A stretch of DNA of 64,000 bases from Myxococcota bacterium (GCA_050331295.1 JBHJGZ010000007.1:350422-414421); one strand, 5' to 3'; positions 6,595 to 28,972 are shown, counted from the first letter of the stretch. Numbers and translations are program-made. The notes: a model not told the origin generated them from the sequence alone.

Positions 6595-8252
6595 AGGCGA
6601 CCTTGCTCGTAGTCCTCGGCCAGTTTCACCCGCTGCAGTTTGCCGCTCGTGGTCTTGGGTATACTGGACACCGGCAAGACCAAGGACACACCGAATCCGG
6701 TTTGGGTTGTGACGACATGACGGATTTTCTGAGCCAGCGCTTCGAACGCTTCTGGACTCCTTCGCCATTGAACGAATACAGCCAGAACCTCTCGCTCCCC
6801 GTCTCGAAGCCCGACTGCGGCCACCTTGCCGATTTCTACTTCGTCCAGGCTCGACACCACGGTCTCGATATCATGTGGAAAGATGTTCTGGCCGTTGACG
6901 ATGGCCATTTCCTTACGACGACCGGCGACATGCAATTCCCCTCGATGTAGAAATCCCAGATCTCCCGTGTCGTACCAGCCGTCCACCCGCGGATCGAAGT
7001 CTCCTTCCTCGGTCCGAACACTGGAGGTGACGTTGAGCCCACGAATCCAGATCGGTCCCACGACACCGTCCTCGACCGGCTGCGGTCGGTCCGAACCATC
7101 GCCGATCCGCACTTCGGTATGCCGGATCGGTCGACCACATGGCACGATGTCCAATCGGTCCTGGTCACTGTCCGGATCTCGTACCGGATCACCGAGTCCG
7201 AGACGGGTTCGGTCCACCGATGTCTTTCGGAGTCCGGAGCCGAGCGGCGGCATGGTCACGGCCAGGCTCGCCTCCGCTAGGCCGTACACTGGAAACATCG
7301 CGTCGGGATTCAGTCCGTGAACCGCGAAAGTGTCCAAGAATCGTTTCACCAATGCATAGGAAATCGGCTCCGCGCCGTTGAAGATCACTCGAACAGGAGA
7401 CAGATCAAGACCTTCGAAACGCTCTCGTTTGTACGCTCGCAAGGTATGTTGATAAGCGAAGTTCGGGCCGCTGGTGACCGTAACCCGATGAGCAGCCGCC
7501 TCCTGAAGCCACGTTAAGGGCCGGCGAACGAAACGTTCGGTGGGCATCAAAGTGTGGTTCGTTCCTCGCATGAACGGAGTAAGATGCCCGCCAATCAGGC
7601 CCATGTCATGGGTGAGCGGCATCCATGCATGCGGTCGGTCGTCCGGTTCGAGCTGGATCGCCTCGATGATCGCGGTCGTGTTGGCGACCAGATTTCGATG
7701 CGTCAGCTTTATGCCTTTCGGTAAGCGCGTCGAGCCCGAGCTGAACTGAACGTAGGCAAGGTCGTCTGGTCGCACATCGTGATGAACACCGGATGGACCG
7801 TGCAACGAAGCTTCTCGGAGCTCGGCGACGGTCACGAGTCTGCTCTTCAGTCGAGACAGATCTCGTCCCGCTGATTCGCTCGAGGCGAACGCAGCGATTC
7901 GCTCCCAGCTTTGTTCATCCGTCACGAAGAAGGGGTCCTCGAAGAGACCGAGCACCCGCCAAACTTTTCGCTGATGCTCTTCTGTCGCCCCGGTGCTCAC
8001 CGGCACTGGAACCGCTCCGCCCAACAAGCACGCCCAAAAAAGCTCCAAGAAATCCTGTGGCGCACTCACATAGAAGCCGACGAAGTTTCCCGGTCGAACC
8101 CCTTGGCTCTGAAGGCGACCCAGACGTCGTGTCGCCCTGTCGAGCAACTCCTCGTAGGTCGTGAACACCGGGTTGGGTCCCGTCAGATACCCGATCCGAT
8201 GTTGGGGTCGGAGAGGATGCATCAGGGCATCCACCAGCGTCTCTGGTGTCAT
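6591..8252 (-). CDS. adenylate-forming enzyme (fatty acyl-AMP ligase / acyl-CoA synthetase superfamily)
   Basis: AMP-binding motifs FSSGSTRLPKG, YGLAEA, WYDTGDLG and C-terminal SGKLQR lysine; 553 aa; ATG start confirmed at 8252. Confidence 0.8.
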   Translation of the reverse strand: MTPETLVDALMHPLRPQHRIGYLTGPNPVFTTYEELLDRATRRLGRLQSQGVRPGNFVGFYVSAPQDFLELFWACLLGGAVPVPVSTGATEEHQRKVWRVLGLFEDPFFVTDEQSWERIAAFASSESAGRDLSRLKSRLVTVAELREASLHGPSGVHHDVRPDDLAYVQFSSGSTRLPKGIKLTHRNLVANTTAIIEAIQLEPDDRPHAWMPLTHDMGLIGGHLTPFMRGTNHTLMPTERFVRRPLTWLQEAAAHRVTVTSGPNFAYQHTLRAYKRERFEGLDLSPVRVIFNGAEPISYALVKRFLDTFAVHGLNPDAMFPVYGLAEASLAVTMPPLGSGLRKTSVDRTRLGLGDPVRDPDSDQDRLDIVPCGRPIRHTEVRIGDGSDRPQPVEDGVVGPIWIRGLNVTSSVRTEEGDFDPRVDGWYDTGDLGFLHRGELHVAGRRKEMAIVNGQNIFPHDIETVVSSLDEVEIGKVAAVGLRDGEREVLAVFVQWRRSPEAFEALAQKIRHVVTTQTGFGVSLVLPVSSIPKTTSGKLQRVKLAEDYEQGRL

Positions 8253-8295: not shown

Positions 8296-9168
8296 CTACA
8301 TCGGCTCCAGAAGGCCCGCGATGCCCTCGGCCCGGAGTCTTTCGATGTCTTCCCGCACCTTCAGCACCACGCCCAAGGTCTGGTCCACGAGTTCCGGTGA
8401 CAGGCGATGTTCCCGCAGAGCCAAGATCGCGCGTGTCCAGTCCAAAGACTCGGCGACCCCCGGAACCTTGAAGAGGTCCTTGGCCCGCAGCCTTTGAACG
8501 AATGCCACCACCGATCGGGCCAATTGTTCATCGACGGCCGGATATCGGGCGCGCACGATGGCCAGTTCCCGATCCAGGTCCGGGTAGTCCACCCAGTGGT
8601 ACAGGCATCGGCGCTTGAGTGCATCATGGATCTCGCGGGTTCGGTTCGAGGTGATCACGACGACCGGGGGCCGGTCGGCCCGGATGGTCCCGATTTCGGG
8701 AATGCTGACCTGCGCGTCGGAAAGAACCTCCAGCAAGAACGCCTCGAAGGGCTCATCCGTGCGGTCCAGCTCGTCGATCAACAGAACCGGGGGCCCTTCG
8801 AGGTGAGGTTCCAACGCCTGAAGCAGGGGGCGCTTGATCAGGAACCGGTCCCCAAACACATCTGGCTCGACGCCTCGAGGTTCGGCCAGCCGGATCTCGA
8901 TCATCTGTCGAGGATAGTTCCATTCGTACACCGCGGAAGCGAGGTCGAGGCCCTCATAGCACTGAAGCCGGATCAGACGTCGACCGAGCTGCTCGGCCAG
9001 GACCTTGGCGACTTCCGTCTTTCCGACTCCGGCCTCGCCTTCCAGCAACAACGGCCTCTCCAGCTCAAAGGCCAGGTAGATCGCGGTGCACAGGTCCCTC
9101 CCAGCCACGTACTGCCCTCGCTGAAGGAGACGAGAGACCTCATCGACGTTTTGAAATGGAGCTCCCAA
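8296..9168 (-). CDS. coxD: CoxD-like MoxR-family AAA+ ATPase
   Basis: Walker A GEAGVGKT; MoxR/CoxD-like N-terminus; 290 aa; start codon is TTG at 9168. Confidence 0.85.
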   Translation of the reverse strand: MGAPFQNVDEVSRLLQRGQYVAGRDLCTAIYLAFELERPLLLEGEAGVGKTEVAKVLAEQLGRRLIRLQCYEGLDLASAVYEWNYPRQMIEIRLAEPRGVEPDVFGDRFLIKRPLLQALEPHLEGPPVLLIDELDRTDEPFEAFLLEVLSDAQVSIPEIGTIRADRPPVVVITSNRTREIHDALKRRCLYHWVDYPDLDRELAIVRARYPAVDEQLARSVVAFVQRLRAKDLFKVPGVAESLDWTRAILALREHRLSPELVDQTLGVVLKVREDIERLRAEGIAGLLEPM

Positions 9169-9186: not shown

Positions 9187-9978
9187 TCAGGCGGCAGCGA
9201 CCGCACGGGCCGCCATGACCTTCACCAAGTGGGCGCGGTAATCGGGCCCGGCATCGAGTTCGTCCAAGAAGTCGGTCGGGTCGACCTCGATGGAGGCCAA
9301 CGCTTCGGGTGCAAAATTTTTGGAAAGGGCTCGCTCCATGTCCGTCAGGCGGAACACTTTCGGACCGGCCCCCGTCACTGCGACGCGAACCTCATCTCCC
9401 CAGGTCGCCACCATCACCCCCACGATGGCATACTTGGACGCGGGATTGGGGAACTTCGCATAAGCCGCCCGGTCGACCGCCCGAAAGTGAACTGCCGTGA
9501 TGATCTCGTCTCTTTCGAGAGCCGTCTCGAACAGGCCGGTGAAGAACGCGTCAGCGTCGATTGTGCGTTGGTCCGTCTCCACCCGTCCATCCAAGGCCAC
9601 CACCGCCGCTGGATAGTCGGCTTGCGGGTCGGCATGGGCAATCGAGCCCCCCAACGTCCCCCGATTTCGGACCTGGGCGTCCCCGATGCCGTGCGCCAAC
9701 TTCGCCAGCGCCGGAAGACTCTGTCGGATCAGGCGGGAGGTTTCCACCTCGGCATGGGTGACGCTGGCGCCTACCACCACCCGGCCGTCCCGGACCTCGA
9801 TGCCTTTCAGCTCACGCAGTCCCTTCAAGCAGATCAAGTCGCTTGGCGCGGCTAGGTCCAGCTTCATGACGGGGATCAGGCTCTGGCCCCCACCCAGGAA
9901 CTTCCCGTCCACGCGAGCCGCCAGCAATGCTTTCGCTTCTTCCACCGTCGAGGGTCGATGAAACTCGAACGATTCCAT
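9187..9978 (-). CDS. coxM: Mo-hydroxylase FAD-binding medium subunit (CoxM/CutM-like)
   Basis: FAD-binding PCMH domain with the characteristic (F/L)LGGGQSL(I/L) motif (KFLGGGQSLIP), which it shares with CoxM and XdhB-type subunits; 263 aa. Confidence 0.9.
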   Translation of the reverse strand: MESFEFHRPSTVEEAKALLAARVDGKFLGGGQSLIPVMKLDLAAPSDLICLKGLRELKGIEVRDGRVVVGASVTHAEVETSRLIRQSLPALAKLAHGIGDAQVRNRGTLGGSIAHADPQADYPAAVVALDGRVETDQRTIDADAFFTGLFETALERDEIITAVHFRAVDRAAYAKFPNPASKYAIVGVMVATWGDEVRVAVTGAGPKVFRLTDMERALSKNFAPEALASIEVDPTDFLDELDAGPDYRAHLVKVMAARAVAAA

Positions 9979-9988: not shown

Positions 9989-12361
9989 CTATCCATCTCG
10001 TTTCGCGGTCTGGATGGCCTTCCAGACTCTCTGCGGCGTGGCCGGCATGTCGAGGTCCTTCACCCCCAAGGGTGCCAGCGCATCCAAAACGGCATTGATC
10101 ACCGCCGGCGGGCTCCCGATCGCCCCCGCTTCACCACAGCCCTTGGACCCCAAAGGATTGTGGGTGCACGGCGTCACGTGGTTTCCGGTCTTGAAGAAAG
10201 GAAGGTCGGCCGCCCGCGGCATGCAGTAGTTCATATAGCTGGCCGTGAGAAGCTGTCCCGTCTCATCGTAGGTGCAGGCTTCGTAGAGGGCCTGACCAAT
10301 GCCCTGCGCCAGACCTCCTTGAATCTGTCCGTCGACGATCAACGGATTGATGACCCGTCCCACGTCATCTGCCGCCGCCATGTCGATCAGCTGCACGACG
10401 CCGGTGTCGGGGTCCACTTCCACCTCCGCAATGTGGCATCCGCCAGGAAACGTGAAGTTCTTCGGGTCATAGAAGGAACTCTCTTCCAGGCCGGGCTCAA
10501 GCTCCTCGAGCGGGTAGTTGTGAGGAACATACGCGGAGAACGCAACCTCTGCGAAGGCCTTCTTGCGGTCCGTACCCTTCACCGCAAAATGTCCGTCCGA
10601 GAATTCGATGTCACCCGCATCGGCCTCCAGCAGATGTGCTGCAATCTTCTTTCCCTTCTCGATCACTTTCTCGGTGGCCTTCGCGATGGCGGAACCTCCG
10701 ACCGGCAGCGAACGCGAGCCATACGTCCCCATTCCGAAGGCGGTGTTCGCGGTATCGCCGTGGACGAGTTCCACGGACTCGAACGAGATCCCAAGTTTGT
10801 CCGCCACGATTTGTGCGAAAGCGGTCTCATGCCCCTGGCCGTGACTATGAGTGCCGGTGAAGACGGTCACGGAGCCAGTGGGATGAACTCGAATCGTCGC
10901 TGATTCGTACAGTCCGGCGCGAGCGCCCAGGGCACCTGCCAAGGCGGACGGCGCGAGTCCGCAGGCCTCGATATACGTCGACAAGCCGAGTCCCCGCAGC
11001 TTGCCAGCCTTCTTCGAAGCTTCTCGTCGTTTCTCGAAGTTGGCGTAATCGATCTTTTCCAGCGCGAGATCCAACGTCGCCTCGAAGTTTCCGATATCGT
11101 ATTCGAGGGCTACCGGTGTCTGATAAGGAAAGTCGCTCTCCTTGATCATGTTCTTTCGTCGAAGTTCGACCCGGTCGAATCCACATTCCCGCGCCGCCTT
11201 TTCCACCAGCCGCTCGAGTAGGTACGTCGCTTCCGGACGACCTGCCCCGCGGTAGGCATCGACCGGAGCCGTGTTCGTGAAAAAGGCCTGCACTTCGCAA
11301 TAGATGGCGGGAGTCTTGTAAACTCCAGCCAAGAGCGTAGCGTACAGATACGTGGGAACGGCCGGAGCGAACGTGGAGAGATAGGCTCCCATGTTGGCTT
11401 TGGTCTGAACCCGCAGTCCCAAGAAGTTTCCGTCAGCATCCAACGCAAGCTCGGCGTGGGACCGATGATCGCGGCCGTGCGCATCGGTTTGAAACGATTC
11501 CGTCCGCTCGGCCGTCCATTTGACCGGACGTCCCAATCTCTTGGACGCCCAGGTCACCACCGCCTCCTCGGCATAGTGGTAGATCTTCGAACCAAACCCA
11601 CCCCCGACATCGGGAGCCACGACGCGAAGTTTATGTTCGGGCAGATTGAGGACGAAAGCACCCATCAAGAGGCGGATCAGATGGGGATTCTGAGTTGTCG
11701 TATAGAGGGTATGATGGTCGGAGGACGCGTCGTACTCTCCGATGCAGCTCCGCGGCTCGATGGCATTCGGCACCACTCGGTTGTTGATCAGATCGATGGC
11801 TACGACGTGCGTAGCCTTCGAAAAGGCTGCATCGGTCGCCGCCTTGTCCCCCAACTCGAAGTCGTAGCACTGATTGCCCGGGGCCAGTTCCCAAACCAAG
11901 GGCGCATTGGGAGCGACCGCCTGTTCGAGATTCGCAACGACGGGTAGGTCCTCGTATTCCACGGCCACCGCTTTCGCGGCGGACTTCGCCTGGGCTTGAG
12001 TTTCGGCCACGACAACCGCGATCTGATCTCCGACGTGCCGGACGACGCCGTCGGCGAGGGGGGGGTGCGGCGGCTCCTTCATGGGGGAACCGTCGCGACT
12101 GTGGATCTGCCATCCGGTCGGGATGCTTCCCACCCCGTCCGCCTTCATGTGTTCGCCGGTGAGGACCGCAAGAACACCCGGTAGCTTCTCCGCATCGGAC
12201 GCGTCGACCTTCACTCGGGCGTGGGCCATCTGCGACCGAACGAAACATGCATAGGCCTGGAATGGCCGAACCATGTCATCGGTGTATTGGCCTTTGCCGG
12301 TGAGAAACCGCGTGTCCTCCTTGCGAGTGACTCGATCGCCGATCCGTCCCGCGAGTGTCAT
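9989..12361 (-). CDS. coxL: aerobic-type CO dehydrogenase-like Mo-hydroxylase large subunit, form II (AYRGAGR motif)
   Basis: Ald_Xan_dh_C/C2 domains; active-site loop [14 protein letters not shown] at 12361 ([16 protein letters not shown]) sits 2 nt after the coxS stop; the 119-codon upstream extension of the ORF is rejected. Confidence 0.9.
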
Positions 12362-12363
12362 GT

Positions 12364-12843
12364 CTACTTTGCCTCCTTCATGCTCTGAGCCGCGGCCTGC
12401 ACCGCCTTCACGATGCCGTGATATCCAGTACACCGGCAAATGTTGCCTTCGAGCCACTCGCGAATGTCGCCTTCGCTCGGTGCCGCATTGTGCTGCAGAA
12501 GGTCGAGGGCACTCATCACCATACCCGGAGTGCAATAACCGCACTGTAGGCCATGATGTTCTTTGAATGCAGCCTGAATCGGATGAAGCTCGCCATTCGA
12601 AACACCTTCGATGGTGGTGACATCGGCTCCGTCCGCTTCTACGGCCAACATGCTGCACGCCTTCACTGATCGGCCGTCCACCATCACTGTGCAGGCGCCG
12701 CACTGGCTCGTATCGCAACCGACGTGAGTGCCGGTGAGACGAAGCCGTTCCCTCAAGAGTTCAACCAGCAGCGTTTGGGACTCGACCTGGACCTCGACTC
12801 CCTTTCCGTTCACGTTCATTTGAATCGAATGCATCTTGTTCAC
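12364..12843 (-). CDS. coxS: (2Fe-2S)-binding small subunit of Mo-hydroxylase (CoxS-like)
   Basis: Plant-type ferredoxin motif [11 protein letters not shown] and second cluster motif CGYCTPG...CRCTGY; 159 aa. Confidence 0.95.
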
Positions 12844-13057: not shown

Positions 13058-14332
13058 GTGCGTCGCGCATTCACATTGGCCGCCCTCATCATGGCGGGCG
13101 AGTCCATCTACACGCTGCCCTACGCCCTTCGTCGGGACTTCGCTCCAGTGATCCTGGAGGTCAGCGAGATGTCGTCGACCGAGCTCGGGCAGCTCAGCTC
13201 GATCTTCGGAGTGTTCGCGCTCCTCTGCTACTTCCCTGGAGGGTGGATCGCAGACCGCTTTCCCGCCCGCTCCTTGATGACCTTCTCGTTGCTCAGCACC
13301 GGCGCCCTCGGTCTGGGACTGGCCACACTTCCGAGTTTTTGGGGCATGCTGATGCTGTTCGCGGCCCTTGGTATCACCACCATCCTCACGTTCTGGGCTG
13401 CGCTCATCAAGGCCACGCGTGCTTGGGGCGGCGCCACCCAGCAAGGACTGGCCTTCGGTCTCCTGGACGGAGGCCGCGGGGTCGTCGACGCCCTCTTGGC
13501 TTCGACTGCGGTACTCACCTTTTCCCTAGTCGGAGGGGACGCAGCGGGCCTTAGGGGTGTCATCCTGCTGATGGCGTCGAGTTCGACGATGGCCGGCATC
13601 TGGGTCTGGTTTGCGGTTCGGGACGATCGGAGTGTCGAATCTTCCGCTCCCGGTGGAGCCATGCCCTCTCAACTCTTGGCGGTCGTTCGAATGCCCATCA
13701 CGTGGCTTCAAGCGGTCATCATCGTCGTGAGCTTTTCCTGTTTCTGGGGCACTTTCGACCTCTCGTCCTACGCGGTGGACAGCTTCGGGTGGTCCTCCGC
13801 GTCAGCCGCGTCTCTGTCGGCCGCAACACGATGGCTCCGTCCCATTGCCGCCCTCGGGGCCGGACTTCTGGCCGATCGAACGTCGGCCACTCGCGCCATC
13901 GTGGTCTGCTTCGTGAGTCTCATCGTCTCATACGGAGCGTTCGCGACGGTTCCGAGCATCCAAGGTCCGGTGTGGATTCTTTGGGCCAATGCATCCGCGG
14001 TTTGTCTCTTCAGCTTCGCGCTTCGAGGCGTGTACTACGCCATCATGGAGGAAGCCGATGTTCCGGTCCATCTGACCGGAACCACCGTTGGCGTCGTTTC
14101 CGTACTGGGCTTCACACCCGACATCTTCGTTCCGTTGATCCTCGGCTCCCTCGTCGACGGCTATCCAGGAGGACAAGGGCACCGACTCTTCTTCGCCGGT
14201 CTCTCCGCTCTTTGCTGCGTGGGATTGGCGGCAGCGGTGTTCGCGGCGCGCCTGACCGCGAGAAGCCGGACTTCGGCCTCCACGGCTTTGGACACCGGTC
14301 GGCCTACCGAAGCGGTTCGACGCCCTTCCTGA
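13058..14332 (+). CDS. MFS transporter
   Basis: Twelve predicted hydrophobic segments and MFS-like loop motif (GGWIADRFPARS); 424 aa. Confidence 0.7.
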   Translation: MRRAFTLAALIMAGESIYTLPYALRRDFAPVILEVSEMSSTELGQLSSIFGVFALLCYFPGGWIADRFPARSLMTFSLLSTGALGLGLATLPSFWGMLMLFAALGITTILTFWAALIKATRAWGGATQQGLAFGLLDGGRGVVDALLASTAVLTFSLVGGDAAGLRGVILLMASSSTMAGIWVWFAVRDDRSVESSAPGGAMPSQLLAVVRMPITWLQAVIIVVSFSCFWGTFDLSSYAVDSFGWSSASAASLSAATRWLRPIAALGAGLLADRTSATRAIVVCFVSLIVSYGAFATVPSIQGPVWILWANASAVCLFSFALRGVYYAIMEEADVPVHLTGTTVGVVSVLGFTPDIFVPLILGSLVDGYPGGQGHRLFFAGLSALCCVGLAAAVFAARLTARSRTSASTALDTGRPTEAVRRPS

Positions 14333-15947
14333 GATCCGCCCAGGTGTCGGGTGTGTCGATATCGACATGGACGCCACCATCCCGAACCTCGATGCGCTCC
14401 ACCTCATCTCGATGTCGAGCGATCAAGCCCCGAGCCCCTTCGTCGCCCGTGACCTGTTCAAGCTCCCCGAAGAACTTCCGGCTCCACAGCACCGGATGCC
14501 CTCGCTTTCTTCCATGGGTCGGCACGCGAATGGACCCCGGCCCGTGGGGCTTGAAGTCTTCCAAGAGCGTCCGCACGTGTTCTTCACTCACGAACGGCAT
14601 GTCTCCGAGGAACACCATGACACCGTCGACTTCGGTCGGAAGTGCGCGGATGCCGGTCCGCAAGGACGTACTCATGCCCTCACCGTACCGTTCATTGTGA
14701 ACGAAGTGGCAAGGGAGACCTCGCAACGCGGCCTTCACTTCCTGATGCTCGTGTCCGGTGACCACGACCACTGGGTCAAGGCCCGCCCTGACCGCCGCTT
14801 CCACTGGATGGCGCACCATGGGCTGACCTTTCACGTTCAGCAGCAGTTTATTGCGGCCACCCATCCTCGACGAACGTCCGGCAGCCAAGATCACCGCCGA
14901 CACCGCGACCGGCGCGCTCGATTCGGCGTCGGCGTTGCCGTACTGAGAACGAGGTGTCGGACGAAGCTCCACCTCGTGCAACAGGCCCCCGACTCCCAAG
15001 CCCATCAAGTCCTGGCCCGTCACCGGGACACCGGCCGCGATGCGCCAGAGGACCCAATCGAAGCCCGACGGCTTCGAGGACCGCGCACACCCCGGCAGCC
15101 CGAGGACCGGTATGTCGAGCTTCGAACCGGCCCGTGCCAAGAGGATCAGATTTCCCGGGTCGACCGGCATTCCAAAATGATCGACACGACCTCCGGCGTG
15201 TTCCACCGCGGACGGCAATACATCTTGCCGGTCACAAATCGCCGAGGCGCCGAGAATGAGAACCAGATCGGTAGCCAGCCCGTCTCGTATCGCGCGCGCC
15301 ACCGCCTCCGGCTCGTGCTCCACCACGACCGTCCGATCGATCTCTCCGCCCAAGAATGCCAACCGGGCTCGCTGGACGTCCTCGGTCCTTTGAAGAAGGC
15401 GCGTGGAAGTGTGGTCGAATGCGGTCAATATCAGGCGCGCCCGGAGTGGGAGAAAAGGACGAACCGAAACCAAGGCTTCCCTCGCGGCCAAGGAGCGACG
15501 GACATCGGACACCACCGCCATCGGTAGCGCGAAAGGAATGATCTTGAGGGTGGCGACCATCTCCCGGGCCTCCACCGGTCGAAACGAGGCGAGCGTGGAA
15601 AGGGCCACCGCCTCGTGGGTTCGATTGAAGTCGTCGACGCCGGAACTATCGACGGTCAGCAAGCCGCGATGTTCGGCGAAGAAGTTGATGCGCCCGGTTC
15701 GCGCCGGACCGCTTCGAACCCCAGGGCCCTCTACCCAAGAACGCAGCTGCTCGGCTGCGTCGTCTTCATGAATGTCATCGGCCTCGAGCCGCACTACGGT
15801 CAGTTCTCGAACTCCTGCCCGGACCAACGACGCCAACTCCGCTGCATTCAGGCGATGGCCTTTTGGGAGGCTGATCCCGGAAACCTTCAGTTTGTGAGCC
15901 AGCAAACAAGCCTCTGCCTCCTGGACGGGAAGGTTCGAGAGCTTCAT
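14304..15947 (-). CDS. molybdopterin-binding (MoCF_biosynth-like) domain fused to MobA/MocA-like molybdenum cofactor nucleotidyltransferase
   Basis: C-terminal NTP_transf_3 motifs (VILAAGRSSRMG...NKLL, DMPFV); N-terminal MoeA/CinA-like molybdopterin-binding domain. ATG at 15947 forms an ATGA overlap with the xdhC stop; the upstream ORF extension is rejected. Confidence 0.75.
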   Translation of the reverse strand: MKLSNLPVQEAEACLLAHKLKVSGISLPKGHRLNAAELASLVRAGVRELTVVRLEADDIHEDDAAEQLRSWVEGPGVRSGPARTGRINFFAEHRGLLTVDSSGVDDFNRTHEAVALSTLASFRPVEAREMVATLKIIPFALPMAVVSDVRRSLAAREALVSVRPFLPLRARLILTAFDHTSTRLLQRTEDVQRARLAFLGGEIDRTVVVEHEPEAVARAIRDGLATDLVLILGASAICDRQDVLPSAVEHAGGRVDHFGMPVDPGNLILLARAGSKLDIPVLGLPGCARSSKPSGFDWVLWRIAAGVPVTGQDLMGLGVGGLLHEVELRPTPRSQYGNADAESSAPVAVSAVILAAGRSSRMGGRNKLLLNVKGQPMVRHPVEAAVRAGLDPVVVVTGHEHQEVKAALRGLPCHFVHNERYGEGMSTSLRTGIRALPTEVDGVMVFLGDMPFVSEEHVRTLLEDFKPHGPGSIRVPTHGRKRGHPVLWSRKFFGELEQVTGDEGARGLIARHRDEVERIEVRDGGVHVDIDTPDTWADLRKGVEPLR

Positions 15948-16681
15948 TTCCGTGCACTCCCGCCGCGCAAGACACTGACCATTTCCGCCAGCGCAGACAG
16001 CGCGACCTCTGCGGGTGCACGTCCGCCCAATGCGAGACCCAGCGGCCCGTGAAGCCGGTCCAACGCCGCTTCGTCGAAGCCCTGCTTTGCCAAACGGCGT
16101 CGGCGTGCCGCATGGGTCTTCGAGGAGCCGAGACAACCGATGTAAAAAGCGGGACTCTGAAGGGCAACTTCGAGGGCGGGGTCATCGAGTTTGGGGTCGT
16201 GGGTCAGCGTGATGACGGCGGAGCGGTGGTCGAGGGCAGCGGCTTCCAACGCTTCGTCGGGCCATGCTTCATCTATCAAAACCCCGGGAAAGCGCTCGGT
16301 CCGGCCGAACGAAGATCGTGGATCGATGACCGTGACCTCGAAGCCGAGGCCCTTCGCCATCGAGACCATGGCCTGCGCGATGTGCACCGCGCCCACGACA
16401 AAGAGGCGCAACGGTGGGTTGAAGGGCAGATAGAATACCCCGTCGATGGTGCTCGCACGGTCCCGCTCGAGGCACTCCCGTGCCCGTTCCTCCAGCTGGT
16501 CCTTGGGTGGGTTCGCCGTCATGCGATACAGCGCTTGCGTTCCGGTATCCAGTTCGGTGACCAGCACGACCGCTTCTTTGCGCGAGCGCGCGGCCAACAG
16601 AGTCTCCAAGAGCTCCCGCTTCACGTCACGGGCTCCAGCCAGATACGCACCGTACCGCCGCAAGCCAACCCGACCTCCCAA
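15944..16681 (-). CDS. xdhC: XdhC/CoxI-family Mo-cofactor insertion chaperone, C-terminal Rossmann-like domain ORF
   Basis: XdhC_C-like region (LFVVGAVHIAQAMVSMAKGLGFEVTVIDPR). It begins with TTG at 16681 in a different frame from the upstream N-domain ORF, with a 61-nt overlap; a possible ATG start is at 16522. Confidence 0.65.
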   Translation of the reverse strand: MGGRVGLRRYGAYLAGARDVKRELLETLLAARSRKEAVVLVTELDTGTQALYRMTANPPKDQLEERARECLERDRASTIDGVFYLPFNPPLRLFVVGAVHIAQAMVSMAKGLGFEVTVIDPRSSFGRTERFPGVLIDEAWPDEALEAAALDHRSAVITLTHDPKLDDPALEVALQSPAFYIGCLGSSKTHAARRRRLAKQGFDEAALDRLHGPLGLALGGRAPAEVALSALAEMVSVLRGGSARK

Positions 16682-16947
16682 GCCCGGTCATGACTGACCC
16701 CGAACTCGAGCTGCCGAGGTCGACCGGACTCCATGACATCCTTGGCCTCTTCCACCACTGCACCTTCGATGCACCCTCCGGACACCGAGCCTACGAACAA
16801 ACCGTCGTCTCGGATGGCTAGGTGACTTCCGGCGGGGCGAGGTGAAGAACCCCAGGTTTCGATGACGGTGGCGAGAGCAGTCCGATAGCCTTCGGTTCTC
16901 CATCGGTGGACGGCTTCGAGCGGGTCTACGTGCAGCTCGTCTTGCAT
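16621..16947 (-). CDS. xdhC: XdhC/CoxI-family N-terminal domain ORF
   Basis: XdhC_CoxI motif ALATVIETWGSSPRPAGSHLAI...GSVSGGCIEGAVV...GLACGG; stop at 16621-16623; ATG at 16947. Confidence 0.75.
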   Translation of the reverse strand: MQDELHVDPLEAVHRWRTEGYRTALATVIETWGSSPRPAGSHLAIRDDGLFVGSVSGGCIEGAVVEEAKDVMESGRPRQLEFGVSHDRAWEVGLACGGTVRIWLEPVT

Positions 16948-17032
16948 GCAATGACGCTAGTGCGGCTGCACGGGGCTGGCCAGGGGAGAGCGTCCGAAGC
17001 ACCGACCAAATGTTCCGTCGGCGGTTCATGGG
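16948..17032. promoter_or_regulatory. divergent intergenic region between xdhC (minus) and sufS (plus), presumed to carry both promoters
   Basis: 85-bp non-coding gap between divergently oriented starts; no motif verified. Confidence 0.25.
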
Positions 17033-18322
17033 GTGGATCCGCGACCCAATTCCACGCGGTGCGGCATACCCGAGCAGACCATTCGGGTTGACGAGGCCGG
17101 AGCATCGGCTCAGTTGGAAACAGTGGTACGGGACGAGTTCCCCGGTCTGGCCGTCGAATTCGATGGCCGACAGCTCGTGTATCTAGACAGCGCCAGCACC
17201 GCCCAGAAGCCGCGAGCGGTTCTGGATGCGGTGCAACGTGCATTGACACGAGCGGCAAACATACACCGAGGCGTGCATCGGCTGAGCGAGGAGAACACCC
17301 TCGCGTACGAAGGTGTGCGGGCCAAGGCAGCCCATGTCCTGGGGGTACGGGATCCGACGGAGATCGTCTTCACGAGAGGAACCACCGAAAGCATCAATCT
17401 CGTGGCACAGTCCTGGGCTCGCACCGAGCTGAGGTCGGGCGACCAGATCTTGCTGACCGAGCTGGAGCACCACAGCAACATCGTTCCTTGGCAATGGGTG
17501 GCGCGAAGCACCGGCGCCGAACTGGTGGTGGTTCCGGTCGAAGAGGACGGGAGCGTGCAGCTGGCCGCCTTCGAGGCACGTTTGAATCCCAACACTCGGC
17601 TGGTGGCCATCAGCCACGTCTCGAACGCACTTGGAACCGTCTTGGAGGTCGCGTCGATGGTGCGGAGCGCTCGAGCGGTCGGAGCCCTCACCCTGGTGGA
17701 TGGGGCGCAGGCAGTTCCCCACCTTCACATCGACCTCAACGACCTCGGCTGTGATTTCTACACCTTCTCTGGCCACAAGATGTACGGGCCCACCGGGGCG
17801 GGCGTCCTTTGGGCCCGGCGAGAGCTCCTCGAACGTATGCCTCCTTATCAGGGCGGCGGAGATATGATCGCGGAGGTTCGGTTCGAAGAAACGACATACA
17901 ATGCTGTGCCCCACAAGTTCGAGGCCGGAACCCCGGACATCGTCGCCGTCCTGGGACTCGGCGCCGCACTCGACTGGTGGACGGGCTTCGACCAGCAGAC
18001 GGTCCATGATCACGAAGAACGGGTCTACCGGTGCCTCGTGGAGAGCCTTCGAGACCTTCGTGGCATCCGCATGTTGGGCCCGGCGCCAAGTGCCGTGGGC
18101 GCGGTCTCCTTTCTGGTCGACGATCTTCATCCGCATGACGTGGGGACCGCCCTTGACGCCTACGGCATCGCCGTGCGGACCGGACACCACTGTGCACAGC
18201 CGCTCATGGAACGATTCGGGGTGGACGGGACGGTCCGCGCGAGCCTGGGGATCTACAATGACGAGGGGGACGTCGCGGCTCTGGTTTCCGCCCTCGAGCG
18301 TGTGCGACAGGTCCTGGCATGA
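17033..18322 (+). CDS. sufS: SufS-family cysteine desulfurase (class V aminotransferase)
   Basis: DSASTAQKP N-terminal motif, HK PLP-lysine motif (FSGHKMYGPTGAG) and active-site loop RTGHHCAQP; GTG start at 17033. Confidence 0.9.
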   Translation: MDPRPNSTRCGIPEQTIRVDEAGASAQLETVVRDEFPGLAVEFDGRQLVYLDSASTAQKPRAVLDAVQRALTRAANIHRGVHRLSEENTLAYEGVRAKAAHVLGVRDPTEIVFTRGTTESINLVAQSWARTELRSGDQILLTELEHHSNIVPWQWVARSTGAELVVVPVEEDGSVQLAAFEARLNPNTRLVAISHVSNALGTVLEVASMVRSARAVGALTLVDGAQAVPHLHIDLNDLGCDFYTFSGHKMYGPTGAGVLWARRELLERMPPYQGGGDMIAEVRFEETTYNAVPHKFEAGTPDIVAVLGLGAALDWWTGFDQQTVHDHEERVYRCLVESLRDLRGIRMLGPAPSAVGAVSFLVDDLHPHDVGTALDAYGIAVRTGHHCAQPLMERFGVDGTVRASLGIYNDEGDVAALVSALERVRQVLA

Positions 18323-18795
18323 GTGACGATCCTCAGTCGTCTTCGGCGCCTCGGTCCGTCGAAGCCTTGTACCAGGACGCCATCCTTTCCTGGGCGCGCG
18401 ACGGACGTCGCACCGGTCCCCTTCCCTCGCCTCCCCAAGACGGCGACCGGAAGACCCGCAAGGTCAATCCTTTGTGTGGAGACCGCTGCACGGTGTCGGT
18501 GCGCGGGAGCGCCGCGCGGCTCGAGATGGTCAGAACCGAGAGTCGAGGCTGTGCCATCAGCCTCGCGTCGGCGGCGCTCATGGCCGAACTGGTGGAGGGA
18601 TTGCCACCGAGTGAGGCCACAGCGCTTTTCGGAGCCCTGCGGGCCGGGCTCGAGGGCAGCACGGACGCCGCCCTACCCGAACCTCTGCGGCCGCTTCTGT
18701 CGGTGCGTCCCTTCCGGTCTCGGCACCGCTGCGCCTTGCTTCCGTGGGAAGCGCTGTCGGAGCTGATAGGTCTGGACACCTGGTCTTCGACCTAG
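18319..18795 (+). CDS. sufU: SufU/NifU-like Fe-S cluster assembly sulfur-transfer protein
   Basis: NPLCGD motif plus a downstream Cys (ESRGCAIS); 4-nt overlap with the sufS stop. Confidence 0.75.
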   Translation: MSDDPQSSSAPRSVEALYQDAILSWARDGRRTGPLPSPPQDGDRKTRKVNPLCGDRCTVSVRGSAARLEMVRTESRGCAISLASAALMAELVEGLPPSEATALFGALRAGLEGSTDAALPEPLRPLLSVRPFRSRHRCALLPWEALSELIGLDTWSST

Positions 18796-18814: not shown

Positions 18815-21466
18815 ATGAACGTCACGTATCGCGTCCAGCTCCGGGCCGAGTTCGGTTTTTCCAAAGTCGCGGACCTGGCGGACTACTGGGCTCGACTGGG
18901 CATCAGTCATATCTATCTGTCACCGATTCTTCAGTCTGCGCCGGGAAGCACGCATGGCTACGACGTGGTGGACCATTCGACGCTCAATCAGGACCTGGGT
19001 GGCGAGTCGGCATACGCAGAGATGGGGGCCGCTCTATCGGCGGCGGGCCTCAGTCAAGTTGTCGACATCGTCCCGAATCACATGGCCATCGGCACCCTGG
19101 CCAACCGCTGGTGGTGGGATGTCCTCGAGAATGGTCCCGCCAGCCGATTCGCCACCTTCTTCGATGTCGACTGGGGCGCTTCGGGCTCTCGAGATGACCG
19201 TATCTTGCTCCCTGTCCTGGGGGACCATTTCGGACGCATTCTGGAGTCCGGCGAGCTCCGGATAGAGCTTCGGTCCGGAAGGTTCGTCGGCCGCTATCAC
19301 GAAAACCTCTTCCCGGCAGCCCCGAGATCGTTGGGCCCGATCCTCCGGGACGCGAAGGAACGCTGTGGCGCCGACGTGCTCGCTTTCTTGGGCGATGCGC
19401 TGGAACGGACACCTCAGACGTACTCGACCGACCGAGATGGCGCGCGGCGCCGGCATCGGGATCAGGTGGTTCTGTATCAGATGTTCGAGGACGCATGCGC
19501 TGATGAGAGCATCGCCCGTGCCGTTGAAGCCTCAATCCGCGTTTTCAACAGTGACGTAGAACGACTCGAGACTTTCTTCGATGCGCAGAACTACCGGCTC
19601 GCGTTTTGGCAGAGCGGTCGACACGAACTCGAATACCGCCGCTTCTTCGACATCGATACCTTGGTCGGTCTCCGAATGGAGGACGAAGAAGTCTTCCAGG
19701 CAACCCACGCAAAGACCTTTCAGATGGTGGACGCCGGACACATCAGTGGTCTTCGCATCGACCACGTGGATGGACTACGGGATCCGAAGCGTTACCTCTC
19801 GATGCTCCACCGGCGAATCCCGACGGCCTGGGTCGTGGTCGAGAAAATTCTGGAACGCGATGAGCGTCTGCCTGAAGGCTGGCCATGCGCTGGCACAACC
19901 GGCTACGACTTCCTCTCTCTGGTCAACGGGTTGTGGATCAATCCCGAAGGCCTTCAGTCTCTGCACCAGGCATATCGAGCCTTCACCGAGGAGGCCATGG
20001 ACTGGGAGGAGGTCCTTACCGCATCCAAACACCGAGTCTTGCAGGACGGACTGCGTGCTGATGTCGACCGGCTCTCCTCGCTTCTGAGCCTCATCACCGA
20101 AAAGCACCGACGCCACCGCGACCACGCGCCACGTACGCTTCGACTGTTGGTGGAAACGTTCCTGATTTCGTTTCCGGTCTACCGCACGTACGTGACCCCC
20201 GCCGAGGCATCTGCGACCCTCCATGACCGCGCCACCATCGAGTCGGTTGCGGCCAGAGTCCGAGCCATGGTCCCCGAACTCGACGACGAACTCGTAGCGT
20301 GGGTGCAGGACATGCTGCTGCTACGACATCGGGGAGAACTGGAGACGGAGTTCGCGATGAGGTTTCAACAGGTCACGAGCCCGGTCATGGCGAAAGGTGT
20401 CGAAGACACCGCGATGTACCGAAACCACGCGCTTCTCGCGGCCAACGAAGTGGGCTCGAATCCCGACCATCCCACCACGAGCATCTCGACCTTCCATGGC
20501 GCCATGATGGAGGCCAGCAGCCGGATGCCGCAGACGATGCTTGCGACATCGACCCACGACACCAAGAGAAGCGAGGATGTCCGGGCTCGCCTCGCGGTCC
20601 TCTCCGAGATCCCGGACGAATGGGGTACACAAGCTGCCCAGTGGTTCGAGCTCCTGGTCACTCAAGGCTCTGGAGAAGTGGATCGCCCGACCGTGTATGC
20701 GTTTCTTCAGACCATCGTGGGTGCATGGCCCATCGACGTCGAACGCATGACCACATATATGTTCAAGCTCGTCCGAGAAGCCAAGGTTCACACGTCATGG
20801 ACCCAAAACAACACTGCCTATGAAGAACGAGTCGCGAGCTTTGTCCGGGATGCCTTTCTCGAGTCTGAGTTCTTGACCCAGGTAGAGGCGTTCGTCGCGC
20901 GCATCCGAGAAGCCGGCTGGATGAACAGCTTGGCCCAGACCTTGGTCAAGCTCACTGCCCCTGGCATCCCAGACATCTACCAGGGATGTGAGCTCTGGGA
21001 TTTCAGCCTCGTCGACCCGGACAACCGTCGTCCCGTCGACTACGAAAGACGCCGGCAACTCCTCGAACGCGTCGAGTCTGAGCGAGCGGAGGACGCCTGG
21101 GAGCGCAGAGCCGAAGGCGATCCGAAGTTCTTCGTCACGTTTCGAACCCTTCAGCTGCGCAAAACTCGACCGGAGGCTTTTGGAGACCAAGGCTCCTACC
21201 AGGCACTTCCGGTGTTGGGTGCAGATACCGAACACGTTCTCGCCTTCAGTCGAGGCGACGCGGCCGTCACCATCGTTCCGAGATGGACCCTCCGGAGAGC
21301 CCCGACCGCCATCCAAGCGTCGGTCTCACTCGGGAATGATACTTGGCGTAACGTCTTCACGGACGAGTTGGTGTCGGGCGACGTGCAAGTTGCAAACCTC
21401 TTTGCCCGGTTTCCGGTCGCTCTCCTGGAAAGAAGCCCGAATGGGAAAGGAGCTGAATCCGAATGA
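18815..21466 (+). CDS. treY: malto-oligosyltrehalose synthase
   Basis: N-terminus TYRVQL...; GH13 catalytic region; 883 aa; ATGA overlap with treZ. Confidence 0.9.
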   Translation: MNVTYRVQLRAEFGFSKVADLADYWARLGISHIYLSPILQSAPGSTHGYDVVDHSTLNQDLGGESAYAEMGAALSAAGLSQVVDIVPNHMAIGTLANRWWWDVLENGPASRFATFFDVDWGASGSRDDRILLPVLGDHFGRILESGELRIELRSGRFVGRYHENLFPAAPRSLGPILRDAKERCGADVLAFLGDALERTPQTYSTDRDGARRRHRDQVVLYQMFEDACADESIARAVEASIRVFNSDVERLETFFDAQNYRLAFWQSGRHELEYRRFFDIDTLVGLRMEDEEVFQATHAKTFQMVDAGHISGLRIDHVDGLRDPKRYLSMLHRRIPTAWVVVEKILERDERLPEGWPCAGTTGYDFLSLVNGLWINPEGLQSLHQAYRAFTEEAMDWEEVLTASKHRVLQDGLRADVDRLSSLLSLITEKHRRHRDHAPRTLRLLVETFLISFPVYRTYVTPAEASATLHDRATIESVAARVRAMVPELDDELVAWVQDMLLLRHRGELETEFAMRFQQVTSPVMAKGVEDTAMYRNHALLAANEVGSNPDHPTTSISTFHGAMMEASSRMPQTMLATSTHDTKRSEDVRARLAVLSEIPDEWGTQAAQWFELLVTQGSGEVDRPTVYAFLQTIVGAWPIDVERMTTYMFKLVREAKVHTSWTQNNTAYEERVASFVRDAFLESEFLTQVEAFVARIREAGWMNSLAQTLVKLTAPGIPDIYQGCELWDFSLVDPDNRRPVDYERRRQLLERVESERAEDAWERRAEGDPKFFVTFRTLQLRKTRPEAFGDQGSYQALPVLGADTEHVLAFSRGDAAVTIVPRWTLRRAPTAIQASVSLGNDTWRNVFTDELVSGDVQVANLFARFPVALLERSPNGKGAESE

Positions 21467-23190
21467 AGTTTGAAGTCTGGGCTCCCCATGCCCGAGGCGT
21501 AGAGCTCTGTCTGAAAACCGGCGAGCGCCACATCATGGAGCCAACCTCCCCAGCCGGATGGTGGAGTATCGACATTCGAGGCCTGAGCGGGGAGATCCGA
21601 TACGGCTTTTCGATAGATGGCGACGTCCCACTGCCGGACCCGAGGGCTCGTAGAATGCCCGATGGCGTGCATGCGCTCTCCGGCATATGGGATGCCTCCT
21701 CGTTCGAATGGACCGATCGAGGGTTTCGTGCCGCCCCGCTCTCCAGCGGGCTCATCTATGAGCTGCACGTCGGTACATTCTCCGAGGAAGGAAGTTTCGA
21801 TGGCGTGATCACCAAGCTGGACCATCTGGTCGGGCTCGGCGTGACCCATGTCGAACTCATGCCGGTCAACAGTTTCCCGGGTGCCTTCGGGTGGGGGTAC
21901 GACGGCGTCGGTCTCTTTTCGGTCTTCGAACCCTACGGCGGCCCCGATGGTCTTTGTCGACTCGTCGACGCCTGCCATCGGCGCGGTCTCGCGGTGTTGA
22001 TCGACGTTGTCTACAATCATCTCGGTCCGGAAGGAAACTATCTGGCCCGATACGGGCCCTACTTCACCGACCGGTACGAGACTCCGTGGGGCGCGGCAGT
22101 GAATCTCGATGACCGAGGTTCGGACGAAGTACGACGCTTCTTCTTGGACAACGCCAAGATGTGGGTCCGAGACTTCCATGCCGATGGATTGCGGATCGAC
22201 GCGATCCACGCACTCGCAGACGGTTCTGCGAAACATCTATTGGAGGAGATGGCCGAGGAATTCGAGTCTCTCCAAGCGGAAGTCGCGCGGCCTCTGGTCC
22301 TGGTCGCCGAGAGCGACTTGAACGACCCGCGGGTGATTCAGAGGCGACAAGCCGGCGGATTCGGGATGGATGCACAGTGGACCGACGACTTCCACCACGC
22401 CGTTCATGCCCTGATGACCGGAGAACGCCAGGGTTACTACGCCGACTTTGGCACCTGGGCGGAGGTTGCCAAGAGCCTCGAAAGCGCTTTCGTGGTGGAC
22501 GGGGTGCCATCCCGCTTTCGAGGGCGGAGACACGGTCGGTCCGTCGGCACGCTGACCGGCCATCGGTTTGTCGTCTATACCCAGACTCACGACCAGGTCG
22601 GAAACCGGGCTACCGGGGACCGTCTTGGTCACCAACTCTCGGAGGGCCGCCTCAAGATGGCCCTGGCTCTTTTGCTCATGAGTCCTTTCGTCCCCATGCT
22701 GTTCATGGGGGAGGAATGGGCAGCATCGAGTCCATTTCAGTTCTTCTGCGACTTCGGTGACCCGTCGCTGCGGGAAGCGGTCAAAGAGGGTCGCAAGAAG
22801 GAATTCGAAGCTTTCGACTGGAACATCGAGAGCCTTCCCGACCCGCTGTCGCCGGAGACCTTTGGTCGCTGCCGGCTCAATTGGGGCGAGCTGCAGGAGG
22901 CGGGTCACCGCCGCGTTCTGGAATGGGTCCGAGAGCTGGTGAGGCTACGTCGAAGTTATCCGGAATTGACGGATGGCGCCCGAGGTCGCTCGAAGGTCAG
23001 ATTCGGACCGCACTGGTTGACCATGCGGCGTGGCCGGGTCTCCCTCGCCGTCAACACCGGAGTTGATGAACTCGGCTTTTCGGACCTTCCGGGCGACGTG
23101 TTGCTCGCGCACGCGGGAGAACGTCGGTCCGATGACGGCGACGTCGTCGTGGGACCAGATGGGGTGGTCATCGTCGCTGACTCGACATGA
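21463..23190 (+). CDS. treZ: malto-oligosyltrehalose trehalohydrolase
   Basis: MKFEVWAP N-terminus; GH13 motifs DVVYNHLGPEGN, GLRIDA, QTHDQVGNR; 575 aa. Confidence 0.9.
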   Translation: MKFEVWAPHARGVELCLKTGERHIMEPTSPAGWWSIDIRGLSGEIRYGFSIDGDVPLPDPRARRMPDGVHALSGIWDASSFEWTDRGFRAAPLSSGLIYELHVGTFSEEGSFDGVITKLDHLVGLGVTHVELMPVNSFPGAFGWGYDGVGLFSVFEPYGGPDGLCRLVDACHRRGLAVLIDVVYNHLGPEGNYLARYGPYFTDRYETPWGAAVNLDDRGSDEVRRFFLDNAKMWVRDFHADGLRIDAIHALADGSAKHLLEEMAEEFESLQAEVARPLVLVAESDLNDPRVIQRRQAGGFGMDAQWTDDFHHAVHALMTGERQGYYADFGTWAEVAKSLESAFVVDGVPSRFRGRRHGRSVGTLTGHRFVVYTQTHDQVGNRATGDRLGHQLSEGRLKMALALLLMSPFVPMLFMGEEWAASSPFQFFCDFGDPSLREAVKEGRKKEFEAFDWNIESLPDPLSPETFGRCRLNWGELQEAGHRRVLEWVRELVRLRRSYPELTDGARGRSKVRFGPHWLTMRRGRVSLAVNTGVDELGFSDLPGDVLLAHAGERRSDDGDVVVGPDGVVIVADST

Positions 23191-28498: not shown

Positions 28499-28936
28499 TC
28501 AATGCGCTTCGTCGAGCTCGATCTCGTCGACCAGCGCGATGACGTCCTTCACCAGCACGACGCGGAGCTTGTCGTCCCAGGGCACCGCAAGACCTTTCTC
28601 CTTCACGAAGAGGATGCGAGAGCCGTGCGGCACGCCGGAGACGTTTCTTCCGAAACCCTCGTCTTCGTCGTCGGGAGCGGCCCGAGCGACCTCGACGACT
28701 TCCGCATAGGCGACCGAAGTTGCGGCATCCCGAGCACCGGCGGGGAGGATGAGCCCGGACGAGGTCCGGTCCTCGCTGGGTATCAGTCGAACCAACACGC
28801 GAGGTCCCAGCGGCATCACGTGACGGGTGATCCGAGGCCGGGACTCATCGGTCGCTTCGGTTTCCTCGGGCGGCGGGTCCGCGTCGCCGTCCTCTCGTTT
28901 GTCCGAACTCGAAGCGAGCTCCTCTTTCCATCTCAT
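28499..28936 (-). CDS. GroES (Cpn10)-family co-chaperonin paralog with acidic N-terminal extension
   Basis: Core LGPRVLVRL...TSSGLILP...ILFVKEKG...IALVDE matches the Cpn10 pattern; preceded by a D/E-rich segment. The start may be at 28936 (MRWKE) or 28816 (MPLGP). Confidence 0.55.
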   Translation of the reverse strand: MRWKEELASSSDKREDGDADPPPEETEATDESRPRITRHVMPLGPRVLVRLIPSEDRTSSGLILPAGARDAATSVAYAEVVEVARAAPDDEDEGFGRNVSGVPHGSRILFVKEKGLAVPWDDKLRVVLVKDVIALVDEIELDEAH

Positions 28937-28972
28937 CGTGACTCCGTACCTCGAAGAGCGTAATCTTCTCCG

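Follow-up and report, generated by a model that had tools for sequence, protein, structure and literature searches.

Why would sufS and sufU, which encode a cysteine desulfurase and its sulfur acceptor, lie divergently beside xdhC, the gene of a molybdenum cofactor (Moco) chaperone, instead of among genes for Fe-S cluster assembly? This question is raised by a locus in a 64,000-nt stretch of a Myxococcota genome (GCA_050331295.1, JBHJGZ010000007.1:350422-414421; hereafter "the window"). Sulfuration of the Mo center is the step that switches on enzymes of the xanthine-oxidase (XO) family, and to our knowledge the sole bacterial donor known for it is the essential, multi-purpose NifS4 of Rhodobacter capsulatus. 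We consider it rather probable that the pair in the window is a paralogous desulfurase and shuttle recruited to mature hydroxylases that carry molybdopterin cytosine dinucleotide (MCD), and is not the cell's desulfurase for Fe-S assembly; a sulfur supply dedicated to a Mo enzyme is suggested because this SufS lineage sits beside xdhC instead of Fe-S assembly genes. A preliminary description of the window had proposed a Moco-sulfuration module in place of housekeeping Fe-S assembly, and the conserved neighborhood of xdhC and sufS-sufU lends this proposal strong comparative support, with the function itself read from context.

The core of the locus, mapped (as was the rest of the window) from an open reading frame (ORF) listing, Pfam, NCBIfam and public gene calls, comprises these features:

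14304-15947, minus strand: MoCF_biosynth/MocA fusion of 547 aa (a molybdopterin-binding-like part joined to a Moco cytidylyltransferase of MocA type; MoCF_biosynth and NTP_transf_3 domains)
15944-16624, minus strand: C-terminal half of xdhC (XdhC_C, Rossmann), 226 aa (PF13478, 138 bits)
16621-16947, minus strand: N-terminal half of xdhC (XdhC_CoxI), 108 aa (PF02625, 93 bits)
16948-17122, no strand: intergenic region between the divergent xdhC and sufS
17033-18322 (or from 17123), plus strand: sufS, type II (SufS-family) cysteine desulfurase (TIGR01979, Aminotran_5)
18319-18795, plus strand: sufU, zinc-type sulfur-transfer protein (NifU_N, TIGR01994, fold)

All the elements named in the preliminary description lie where it had placed them, with sufS-sufU divergent from xdhC. 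The 85 bp that it had put between xdhC and sufS holds for the longest sufS ORF (17033-18322, GTG start, 429 aa) and becomes 175 bp with the start at GTG 17123 that NCBI calls for the identical protein (399 aa); the N-terminal alignment does not settle between 17033 and 17123. On the plus strand the sufU ATG overlaps the sufS TGA (gcATGAgt), i.e., the two genes are translationally coupled. On the minus strand the fusion's ATG overlaps the TGA of the XdhC_C ORF—the ATGA coupling that had been described—and the GTG start of XdhC_C in turn overlaps the TGA of the XdhC_CoxI ORF (GTGA), so that the assignment to the XdhC family stands while the single xdhC gene gives way to two overlapping ORFs. The reported lack of sufBCD near the pair extends to the whole 64-kb window: in tblastn searches with the three proteins as queries, SufB and SufD had no match and SufC only weak (30-32%) ones, to unrelated ABC ATPases, and no Fe-S assembly genes appear in the Pfam annotation of the other large window ORFs. 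Neither here nor in any of the linked loci described below do sufB, sufC and sufD share an operon or locus with the pair.

The evidence that carries our reading comes from the relatives of this SufS. In a neighbor-joining (NJ) tree built from the 120 best homologues of this SufS, the protein of the window belongs to a monophyletic clade of 11 members from metagenome-assembled genomes (MAGs) of Polyangia, and in all nine members with readable contigs xdhC is divergently adjacent to sufS, at a spacing of about 20-200 bp, with sufU directly downstream. The lineage is small, known so far only from uncultured Polyangia, with 1-3 members per 90% cluster. The loci (L001, the window locus, recurs as an identical stretch in contig CAZSEC010000002.1 of MAG GCA_964605845.1) are arranged as follows:

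L001, window: mocA fusion and split xdhC, diverging from sufS, sufU and treYZ, with a plus-strand major facilitator superfamily (MFS) gene on the far side of the fusion
L004, 63% identity: xdhC divergent, sufU downstream
L005, 61% identity: sufU, then coxG
L088, Labilithrix MAG: moaA, moeA, mocA fusion, xdhC
L089, JGI metagenome contig: sufSU, coxD-E, an opposite-strand LytTR gene, coxG-M-S-L
L090, MAG contig (ENA and NCBI): sufSU, then coxD-E-G-M-S-L, with a form-I CoxL
L099, ENA metagenome contig, one cluster member coming from a Polyangiaceae MAG: second xdhC convergent to sufU
L100, Logan metagenome contig: opposite-strand LytTR gene, then coxDEG-MS
L101, NCBI MAG contig: moeA, mocA fusion and xdhC, diverging from sufS, sufU and coxG

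Outside the core of xdhC, mocA fusion, sufS and sufU, the flanking genes vary from locus to locus, which indicates that the linkage has outlived extensive rearrangement. Downstream of sufS-sufU and on the same strand, coxD and coxE occur in L089, L090, L097 and L100, with the opposite-strand LytTR gene in between in L100; in L089, L090 and L100 the series continues with coxG-coxM-coxS-coxL. An independent sample came from JGI metagenomes, scanned for DNA that encodes FEARGCMIA, a SufU peptide typical of the clade. Five short contigs were recovered; xdhC or coxD/coxE lay beside sufS-sufU in 5/5 and sufBCD in 0/5. A LytTR-domain protein encoded inside the form-I clusters (L089, 11875-12666, minus strand; L100, 5939-6718, minus strand) may be a cluster-specific regulator.

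As controls we used 80 SufS loci of GTDB species representatives, drawn from among the matches listed (47-56% identity, many phyla). A match to XdhC, MocA or Cox (E<=1e-3, about 10 kb) was found in 0/80 of them, versus 9/9 readable clade members. Nearly all control sufS genes belong to (Rrf2)-sufB-sufC-sufD-sufS(-sufU)(-sufT) operons, with sufBCD missing upstream of sufS in about 5-6 of the ~72 evaluable controls (e.g., L033, L051, L056, L062, L064). Beside one such orphan, L064, are encoded an AMP-binding enzyme, parts of an ABC transporter and MdoG, none of them Moco-related; orphans of this kind mean that a lack of sufBCD alone is not diagnostic. What is diagnostic is the Moco-maturation context, which does not vary.

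Housekeeping-type SUF operons do occur among related organisms. The nearest outgroup of the clade in the 120-homologue tree is a small lineage with P0031, which lies in a sufD-sufS-sufU-sufT operon of a Myxococcota MAG (L098), and the myxobacterial SufS proteins P0010 and P0006 are encoded in complete Rrf2-sufBCDSU-sufT operons; no Moco gene lies near the sufS of either the sister lineage or the myxobacterial housekeeping loci. SufB proteins annotated as Polyangiales share 91-92% identity with the SufB of one operon of the P0010/P0006 type, which places housekeeping-type operons in the same order as Labilithrix. Divergent from these myxobacterial operons, and preceding them, are genes for a class-V aminotransferase (NifS/IscS-like, ~400 aa) and an A-type Fe-S carrier (1783-2988 and 217-561 in L006; 1631-2827 and 1239-1583 in L091), the former implying that such genomes typically hold several cysteine desulfurases.

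Could the pair nonetheless be an ordinary housekeeping sufS-sufU that became detached from sufBCD and came to rest beside xdhC without functional meaning? The orphan sufS(U) genes among the controls (again about 5-6 of ~72) lend this some plausibility, as does the lack of a housekeeping copy from the same genome among the matches listed. We nevertheless regard chance adjacency as distinctly improbable, because the linkage to xdhC in every readable clade member, and to xdhC or coxD/E in every motif contig, has held despite reshuffled flanks, because Moco genes are near none of the controls, and because sufSU is co-directional with coxDEG-MSL in several loci. The sequences themselves argue in the same direction. 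SufS identity is 67% among linked loci and 81% among housekeeping copies within Myxococcota; the linked clade is only 56% identical to myxobacterial housekeeping SufS, compared with 60% for housekeeping SufS between phyla. From this comparison, the linked clade behaves like an old, faster-evolving paralogue.

SufS matches Aminotran_5 at E=9e-138 and scores 530.6 bits against TIGR01979, above the curated cutoff of 475.1; aligned with Bacillus subtilis SufS, it keeps the lysine that binds pyridoxal phosphate (PLP) in SGHKMYGPTG, the catalytic cysteine in RTGHHCAQP and the histidine of HPHD, and the solved structures closest to it are those of SufS enzymes, B. subtilis SufS (5j8q/5xt5, E about 1e-121) among them. 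To be relieved of its persulfide a type II SufS depends on an acceptor, either SufU or SufE, and here the adjacent acceptor is encoded by the sufU that overlaps the sufS stop. SufU scores 33.8 bits against NifU_N and 77 bits against TIGR01994, below the latter's cutoff of 92.5, though its match spans model positions 2-136 of 137. In a 49-sequence alignment C53, D55, C78 and C138 are invariant; these Cys-Asp-Cys-Cys Zn ligands have their counterparts in B. subtilis SufU in the motifs NPxCGD, GxGC and RxxC, and the long segment that the SufU fold has between its second and third Cys is present, with a Cys78-Cys138 spacing of 60 residues. The AlphaFold2 model (pLDDT 90.7) superposes in Foldseek on 6jzv/6jzw with template modeling (TM) scores of 0.86-0.90 and root-mean-square deviations of 1.5-1.7 A, the TM score to B. 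subtilis SufU 6jzw being 0.88. On the strength of the invariant SufU residues and the confident model on B. subtilis SufU, the SufS-SufU pair looks catalytically competent.

SufU is also, judging by its sequence, a strongly diverged, fast-evolving member of its family: its identity to a housekeeping SufU from a myxobacterium is only 33%, whereas that protein shares 47-59% with the SufUs of other phyla. A homologue search found, beyond the SufU of L004 (56%) and P0127 (48%), matches at 36-46%, and these 36-46% homologues do not sort into linked and housekeeping types.

The same data bear on whether the SufS-like enzyme could instead be a selenocysteine lyase serving a selenium-dependent Mo hydroxylase. 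In its favor, XdhC-like proteins of the YqeB kind are markers of systems with a selenium-dependent Mo hydroxylase, and SufS/CsdB enzymes do have selenocysteine lyase activity, PDB entries 1jf9 and 1i29 being titled "selenocysteine lyase" by their depositors. Yet the protein scores 175 bits against the SclA model (cutoff 525) while passing the cutoff of its own SufS family, its SufU partner has the intact Cys/Zn site typical of sulfur transfer, and neither selD nor yqeC-type genes were seen in the window annotation. On the family scores and the absence of selD-type genes we rejected this reading, which we hold to be very improbable.

The partner across the intergenic region is an XdhC chaperone in two coupled pieces, one with the XdhC_CoxI and one with the XdhC_C domain. 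The N-terminal half has the GGC motif (SVSGGCIEG) and is 63-75% identical to the sufS-adjacent XdhC of other loci. The gene is split in the independent assemblies L001 and L002, as well as in L004, L090 and L099, and forms one ORF of 327-353 aa in L005, L088, L089, L100 and L101; being seen in two independent assemblies and in other organisms, the split is a recurrent or lineage-specific gene fission and not an assembly error. Four loci encode, convergently to sufU, a second XdhC that is only a distant paralogue of the divergent one (33-37% identity) (L093, 1852-2601; L094, 105-845; L095, 224-952; L099, 3532-4386), where sufS-sufU is accordingly flanked by XdhC genes on both sides.

Coupled to xdhC is the fusion gene, whose product has an NTP_transf_3 domain (residues 351-514, 159 bits) and matches solved MocA/MobA-related proteins over residues 348-543. 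The best NCBIfam match of the protein is MocA TIGR03310, at 173.3 bits against a cutoff of 186.45 and over model positions 1-186 of 188. The N-terminal ~340 aa (residues 1-345) match MoCF_biosynth no more than marginally (27.8 bits, over residues 194-293), and the same module stands alone, without the MocA domain, beside xdhC in L089 (5755-6741, 328 aa); it appears, from sequence comparison, to be an independent, poorly characterized cofactor-handling module.

The spacer between xdhC and sufS presumably holds a bidirectional promoter. It contains no sigma-70-like promoter and no terminator, and its inverted repeats are short and at chance level; among the spacers of nine loci no 8-mer is common to more than 3/9, and no motif of the window spacer is shared with the eight other loci. 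No Rfam family, the Moco riboswitch included, matches anywhere in the window.

With Moco genes as the constant neighbors, one may ask whether the sulfur enters at an earlier step, i.e., whether the pair supplies the dithiolene sulfurs of molybdopterin via thiocarboxylation of MoaD. Molybdopterin synthesis requires a cysteine desulfurase, and in Escherichia coli the dithiolene sulfur is handled by IscS/TusA. The module adjoins moaA and moeA in L088 and moeA in L005 and L101, as this alternative would lead one to expect. However, moaD, moaE and moeB (ThiS, MoaE and ThiF families) are in no gene table of the linked loci, and the constant partners are XdhC and CoxD/E, whose known roles are sulfuration and insertion of the finished cofactor, for the XO family only (PMC2997495, PMC4240915). 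We judge a role in dithiolene formation to be rather improbable.

If the pair serves the sulfuration of a finished cofactor, as we prefer, which enzyme would receive it? The locus also includes, 3.5 kb away, a coxSLM operon for a CO-dehydrogenase-like enzyme of form II; the flanking genes, this operon among them, are as follows:

5383-6768, minus strand: coxE-like VWA protein (VWA_CoxE, E=2e-67; maximal ORF with uncertain true start)
6591-8252, minus strand: AMP-binding enzyme (acyl-CoA-ligase-like)
8296-9168, minus strand: coxD-like AAA+ ATPase (AAA and AAA_5 domains; 55% identity to the CoxD homologue of the L090 form-I cluster)
9187-9978, minus strand: coxM-like FAD subunit (FAD_binding_5; NCBIfam matches are FAD subunits of XO-family enzymes)
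9989-12361, minus strand: coxL-like molybdopterin large subunit, form-II type (Ald_Xan_dh_C, MoCoBD_1, MoCoBD_2)
12364-12834, minus strand: coxS-like [2Fe-2S] small subunit (Fer2 and Fer2_2)
13091-14332, plus strand: MFS transporter, between the maturation genes and coxS (MFS_1, E=5e-22)
18815-21466, plus strand: treY (above NCBIfam cutoff)
21463-23190, plus strand: treZ (above NCBIfam cutoff)

The preliminary description had spoken of an adjacent CO-dehydrogenase-like enzyme; the enzyme is present, and direct adjacency fails in that the MFS gene intervenes before coxSLM. This transporter gene is not kept across loci, L005, L088 and L101 having moeA beside the mocA fusion instead. With a CoxL-like protein encoded together with CoxS and CoxM, an XO-family client is at hand, and the CoxL-like subunit of the window is the probable client enzyme. 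It is not a form-I Mo-Cu CO dehydrogenase (CODH), for its active-site loop reads AYRGAGR (form II) and not the Cu-binding AYRCSFR of form I (AYxCSFR), and it scores 677 bits against TIGR02416, below the cutoff of 991. The CoxL of L090, in contrast, carries the form-I motif VAYRCSFR, by which sequence it is assigned as a true form-I Mo-Cu CODH. The AMP-binding gene between the coxD-like and coxE-like genes may hint at the substrate or pathway of the form-II enzyme.

A Mo enzyme with a [2Fe-2S] subunit invites a further alternative, that the pair is indeed dedicated to this enzyme while feeding the two [2Fe-2S] clusters of CoxS, as sulfur source or with SufU as scaffold. SufS-SufU is elsewhere an Fe-S assembly pair, CoxS-type [2Fe-2S] subunits are encoded in most linked loci, and a [2Fe-2S]-bound SufU of Mycobacterium tuberculosis has been crystallized (PDB 9dcl). 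What makes us think it unlikely is that the constant neighbor is xdhC with the MoCF/MocA gene and not coxS. In L088, moaA, moeA, mocA and xdhC accompany sufSU, with no cox structural gene (coxS included) within 8 kb and no Fe-S subunit gene, and this context connects the pair with the cofactor, not with a subunit that carries Fe-S clusters; L099 shows only XdhC genes around sufSU, and the SufBCD scaffold and a SufA/SufT carrier are absent from every linked locus.

Several considerations weigh against the dedicated role in Moco sulfuration that we favor. The argument for it is made wholly of gene context and conserved residues, and it presupposes a sulfido ligand on form-II CoxL enzymes. In the window, an opposite-strand gene (that of the MFS transporter) parts the maturation module from coxSLM. 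Support for the clade is only moderate (bootstrap 71/100, on a 53-taxon subset and by NJ only), and a single ancestral rearrangement may explain the linkage, the loci not being statistically independent; the linkage is for this reason evidence of retention and not of repeated origin. No housekeeping suf operon of the same MAG came to light: the GTDB matches listed are 47-56% relatives from other genomes, the 120 matches returned for a myxobacterial SufB each have 91% identity or more to it and cannot be traced to the same MAG, and the candidate housekeeping SufS, P0006, belongs to another MAG. Finally, the M. tuberculosis structure means that an Fe-S role of a SufU is not dismissible on family grounds.

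Taken with these reservations, a recruited desulfurase and shuttle would act in the following sequence. The MocA-type domain assigned to the fusion would convert Mo-molybdopterin to MCD, and the split XdhC, as its family would lead one to expect, would bind this cofactor. SufS, whose conserved residues are in place, would take sulfur off L-cysteine as a persulfide on the cysteine of HHCAQP and pass it—since the Cys loop of a type II SufS is short and buried, which makes an acceptor necessary—to Cys53 of the Zn-bound SufU by a ligand swap as in B. subtilis, for which both the Zn ligands and the HPHD histidine are observed. From SufU the sulfur would go to the Mo of the XdhC-bound cofactor, a step to which the conserved adjacency of the genes points, giving a cyanolysable Mo=S or, in the form-I relatives and with CoxD/E taking part, the bridging sulfide of Mo-S-Cu. 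XdhC would then insert the sulfurated cofactor into the CoxL-like subunit, and divergent transcription from the short shared spacer would couple synthesis of the chaperone to that of the sulfur donor.

We give about even chances to a bolder formulation, in which the Polyangia-specific SufS-SufU pair would be the first dedicated bacterial Moco sulfurase, SufU would serve as persulfide shuttle to XdhC-bound MCD outside Fe-S assembly, and the pair in form-I clusters would be the sulfur donor for the Mo-S-Cu site of aerobic CODH. A pair hard-wired to xdhC and coxDEG is a concrete, testable candidate for the CODH sulfur donor; it would extend the role of SufU past Fe-S assembly and would be a separate-protein bacterial counterpart of the eukaryotic Moco sulfurase. 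Co-expression of a cognate XdhC, SufS and SufU could help to yield fully sulfurated, active Mo hydroxylases and CODHs in recombinant production, where the inactive desulfo form is a frequent outcome.

Other features of the window may be noted briefly. The genes treY and treZ (malto-oligosyltrehalose synthase and trehalohydrolase) begin 19 bp past sufU on the same strand, a position not kept in L004, the closest relative; at the end of the window (60454-63963, minus strand) are more alpha-glucan genes, GlgB-like and of the alpha-amylase family. An ArsP-type permease has a fused C-terminal heavy-metal-associated (HMA) domain (28973-30160, plus strand). In a 230-aa maximal ORF (28499-29191, minus strand) only the C-terminal ~95 residues form a Cpn10/GroES domain, and, the public gene call being 145 aa, the long extension at its N terminus is probably artefactual. 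The large and small subunits of methylmalonyl-CoA mutase with a MeaB GTPase (30175-35313, minus strand) are ordinary and unrelated to the subject of this work.

How does the proposed system compare with those already known? Moco sulfuration by XdhC and NifS4 of R. capsulatus is the work, reportedly, of Neumann et al. in 2007. The literature bears out this precedent, to which the preliminary description had appealed: the cysteine desulfurase NifS4 is the donor to XdhC-bound Moco (PMC2997495, PMC13653126), where XdhC binds and protects Moco and presents it to the desulfurase for exchange of an oxo for a sulfido ligand before insertion (PMC2997495, PMC13653126, PMC10609526). Both systems join an XdhC-family chaperone of an XO-family enzyme to a PLP-dependent cysteine desulfurase. 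In R. capsulatus, however, NifS4 is essential, has other cellular roles and is not dedicated to Moco sulfuration (PMC2997495), whereas here a clade-specific type II SufS is always accompanied by a SufU shuttle and always encoded beside xdhC; moreover, the MocA fusion points to MCD as the presumable cofactor here, the clients being of CoxL type.

With the eukaryotic sulfurases ABA3, MOCOS and HxB the pair would share dedication to the XO family, a desulfurase domain closer to SufS than to NifS/IscS (PMC13653126) and a route of sulfur from a PLP domain to a Moco-binding module. The eukaryotic enzyme is one polypeptide with a C-terminal MOSC domain, whereas SufS, SufU and XdhC are separate proteins here; no MOSC domain was matched in the window ORFs scanned, and SufS carries Aminotran_5-type domains only, so that a NifS-like domain fused to MOSC, the mark of a eukaryotic-type Moco sulfurase, is lacking. 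Maturation of the [CuSMoO2] site by coxDEF(G) of Oligotropha carboxidovorans likewise involves a CoxD-like AAA+ protein, a CoxE-like VWA protein, an XdhC-like protein and CoxG encoded with coxMSL, and sulfuration of Mo is a defined step in it (PMC4240915). That cluster is without a desulfurase and the sulfur source of the CuSMo site of CODH is stated to be unknown (PMC4240915), whereas the myxobacterial clusters add sufS-sufU; the window enzyme differs further in being of form II (AYRGAGR). In E. coli FdhD-IscS, too, a cofactor-binding chaperone gets persulfide sulfur from a desulfurase and makes a Mo-sulfido ligand, although the chaperone is of the FdhD family, the cofactor is the bis-molybdopterin guanine dinucleotide (bis-MGD) of formate dehydrogenases and IscS is a housekeeping enzyme (PMC10609526).

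To B. subtilis SufS-SufU (5xt5, 6jzw) the pair corresponds in protein families, ATGA-type coupling, catalytic Cys/Lys, Zn ligands, ligand-swap His and fold (TM 0.88), and it differs from the SUF system there in its lack of a sufBCD partner, its Moco-maturation neighbors and a SufU below the family cutoff (77 vs 92.5 bits). The same principle of a paralogous desulfurase encoded beside its own sulfur acceptor is seen in B. subtilis YrvO-MnmA and NifZ-ThiI, which are however type I enzymes for tRNA thiolation, not known to involve SufU or Moco. Full-text searches that paired XdhC, coxL or Moco with a cysteine desulfurase (SufS among others) or with SufU turned up no systems besides NifS4, IscS/FdhD and the eukaryotic ABA3, and no desulfurase described as encoded in xdhC or cox clusters. 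The class of mechanism is a known one, and what appear to be new are the dedicated type II SufS with SufU, the fixed linkage to xdhC and the presence of the pair in form-I CODH clusters.

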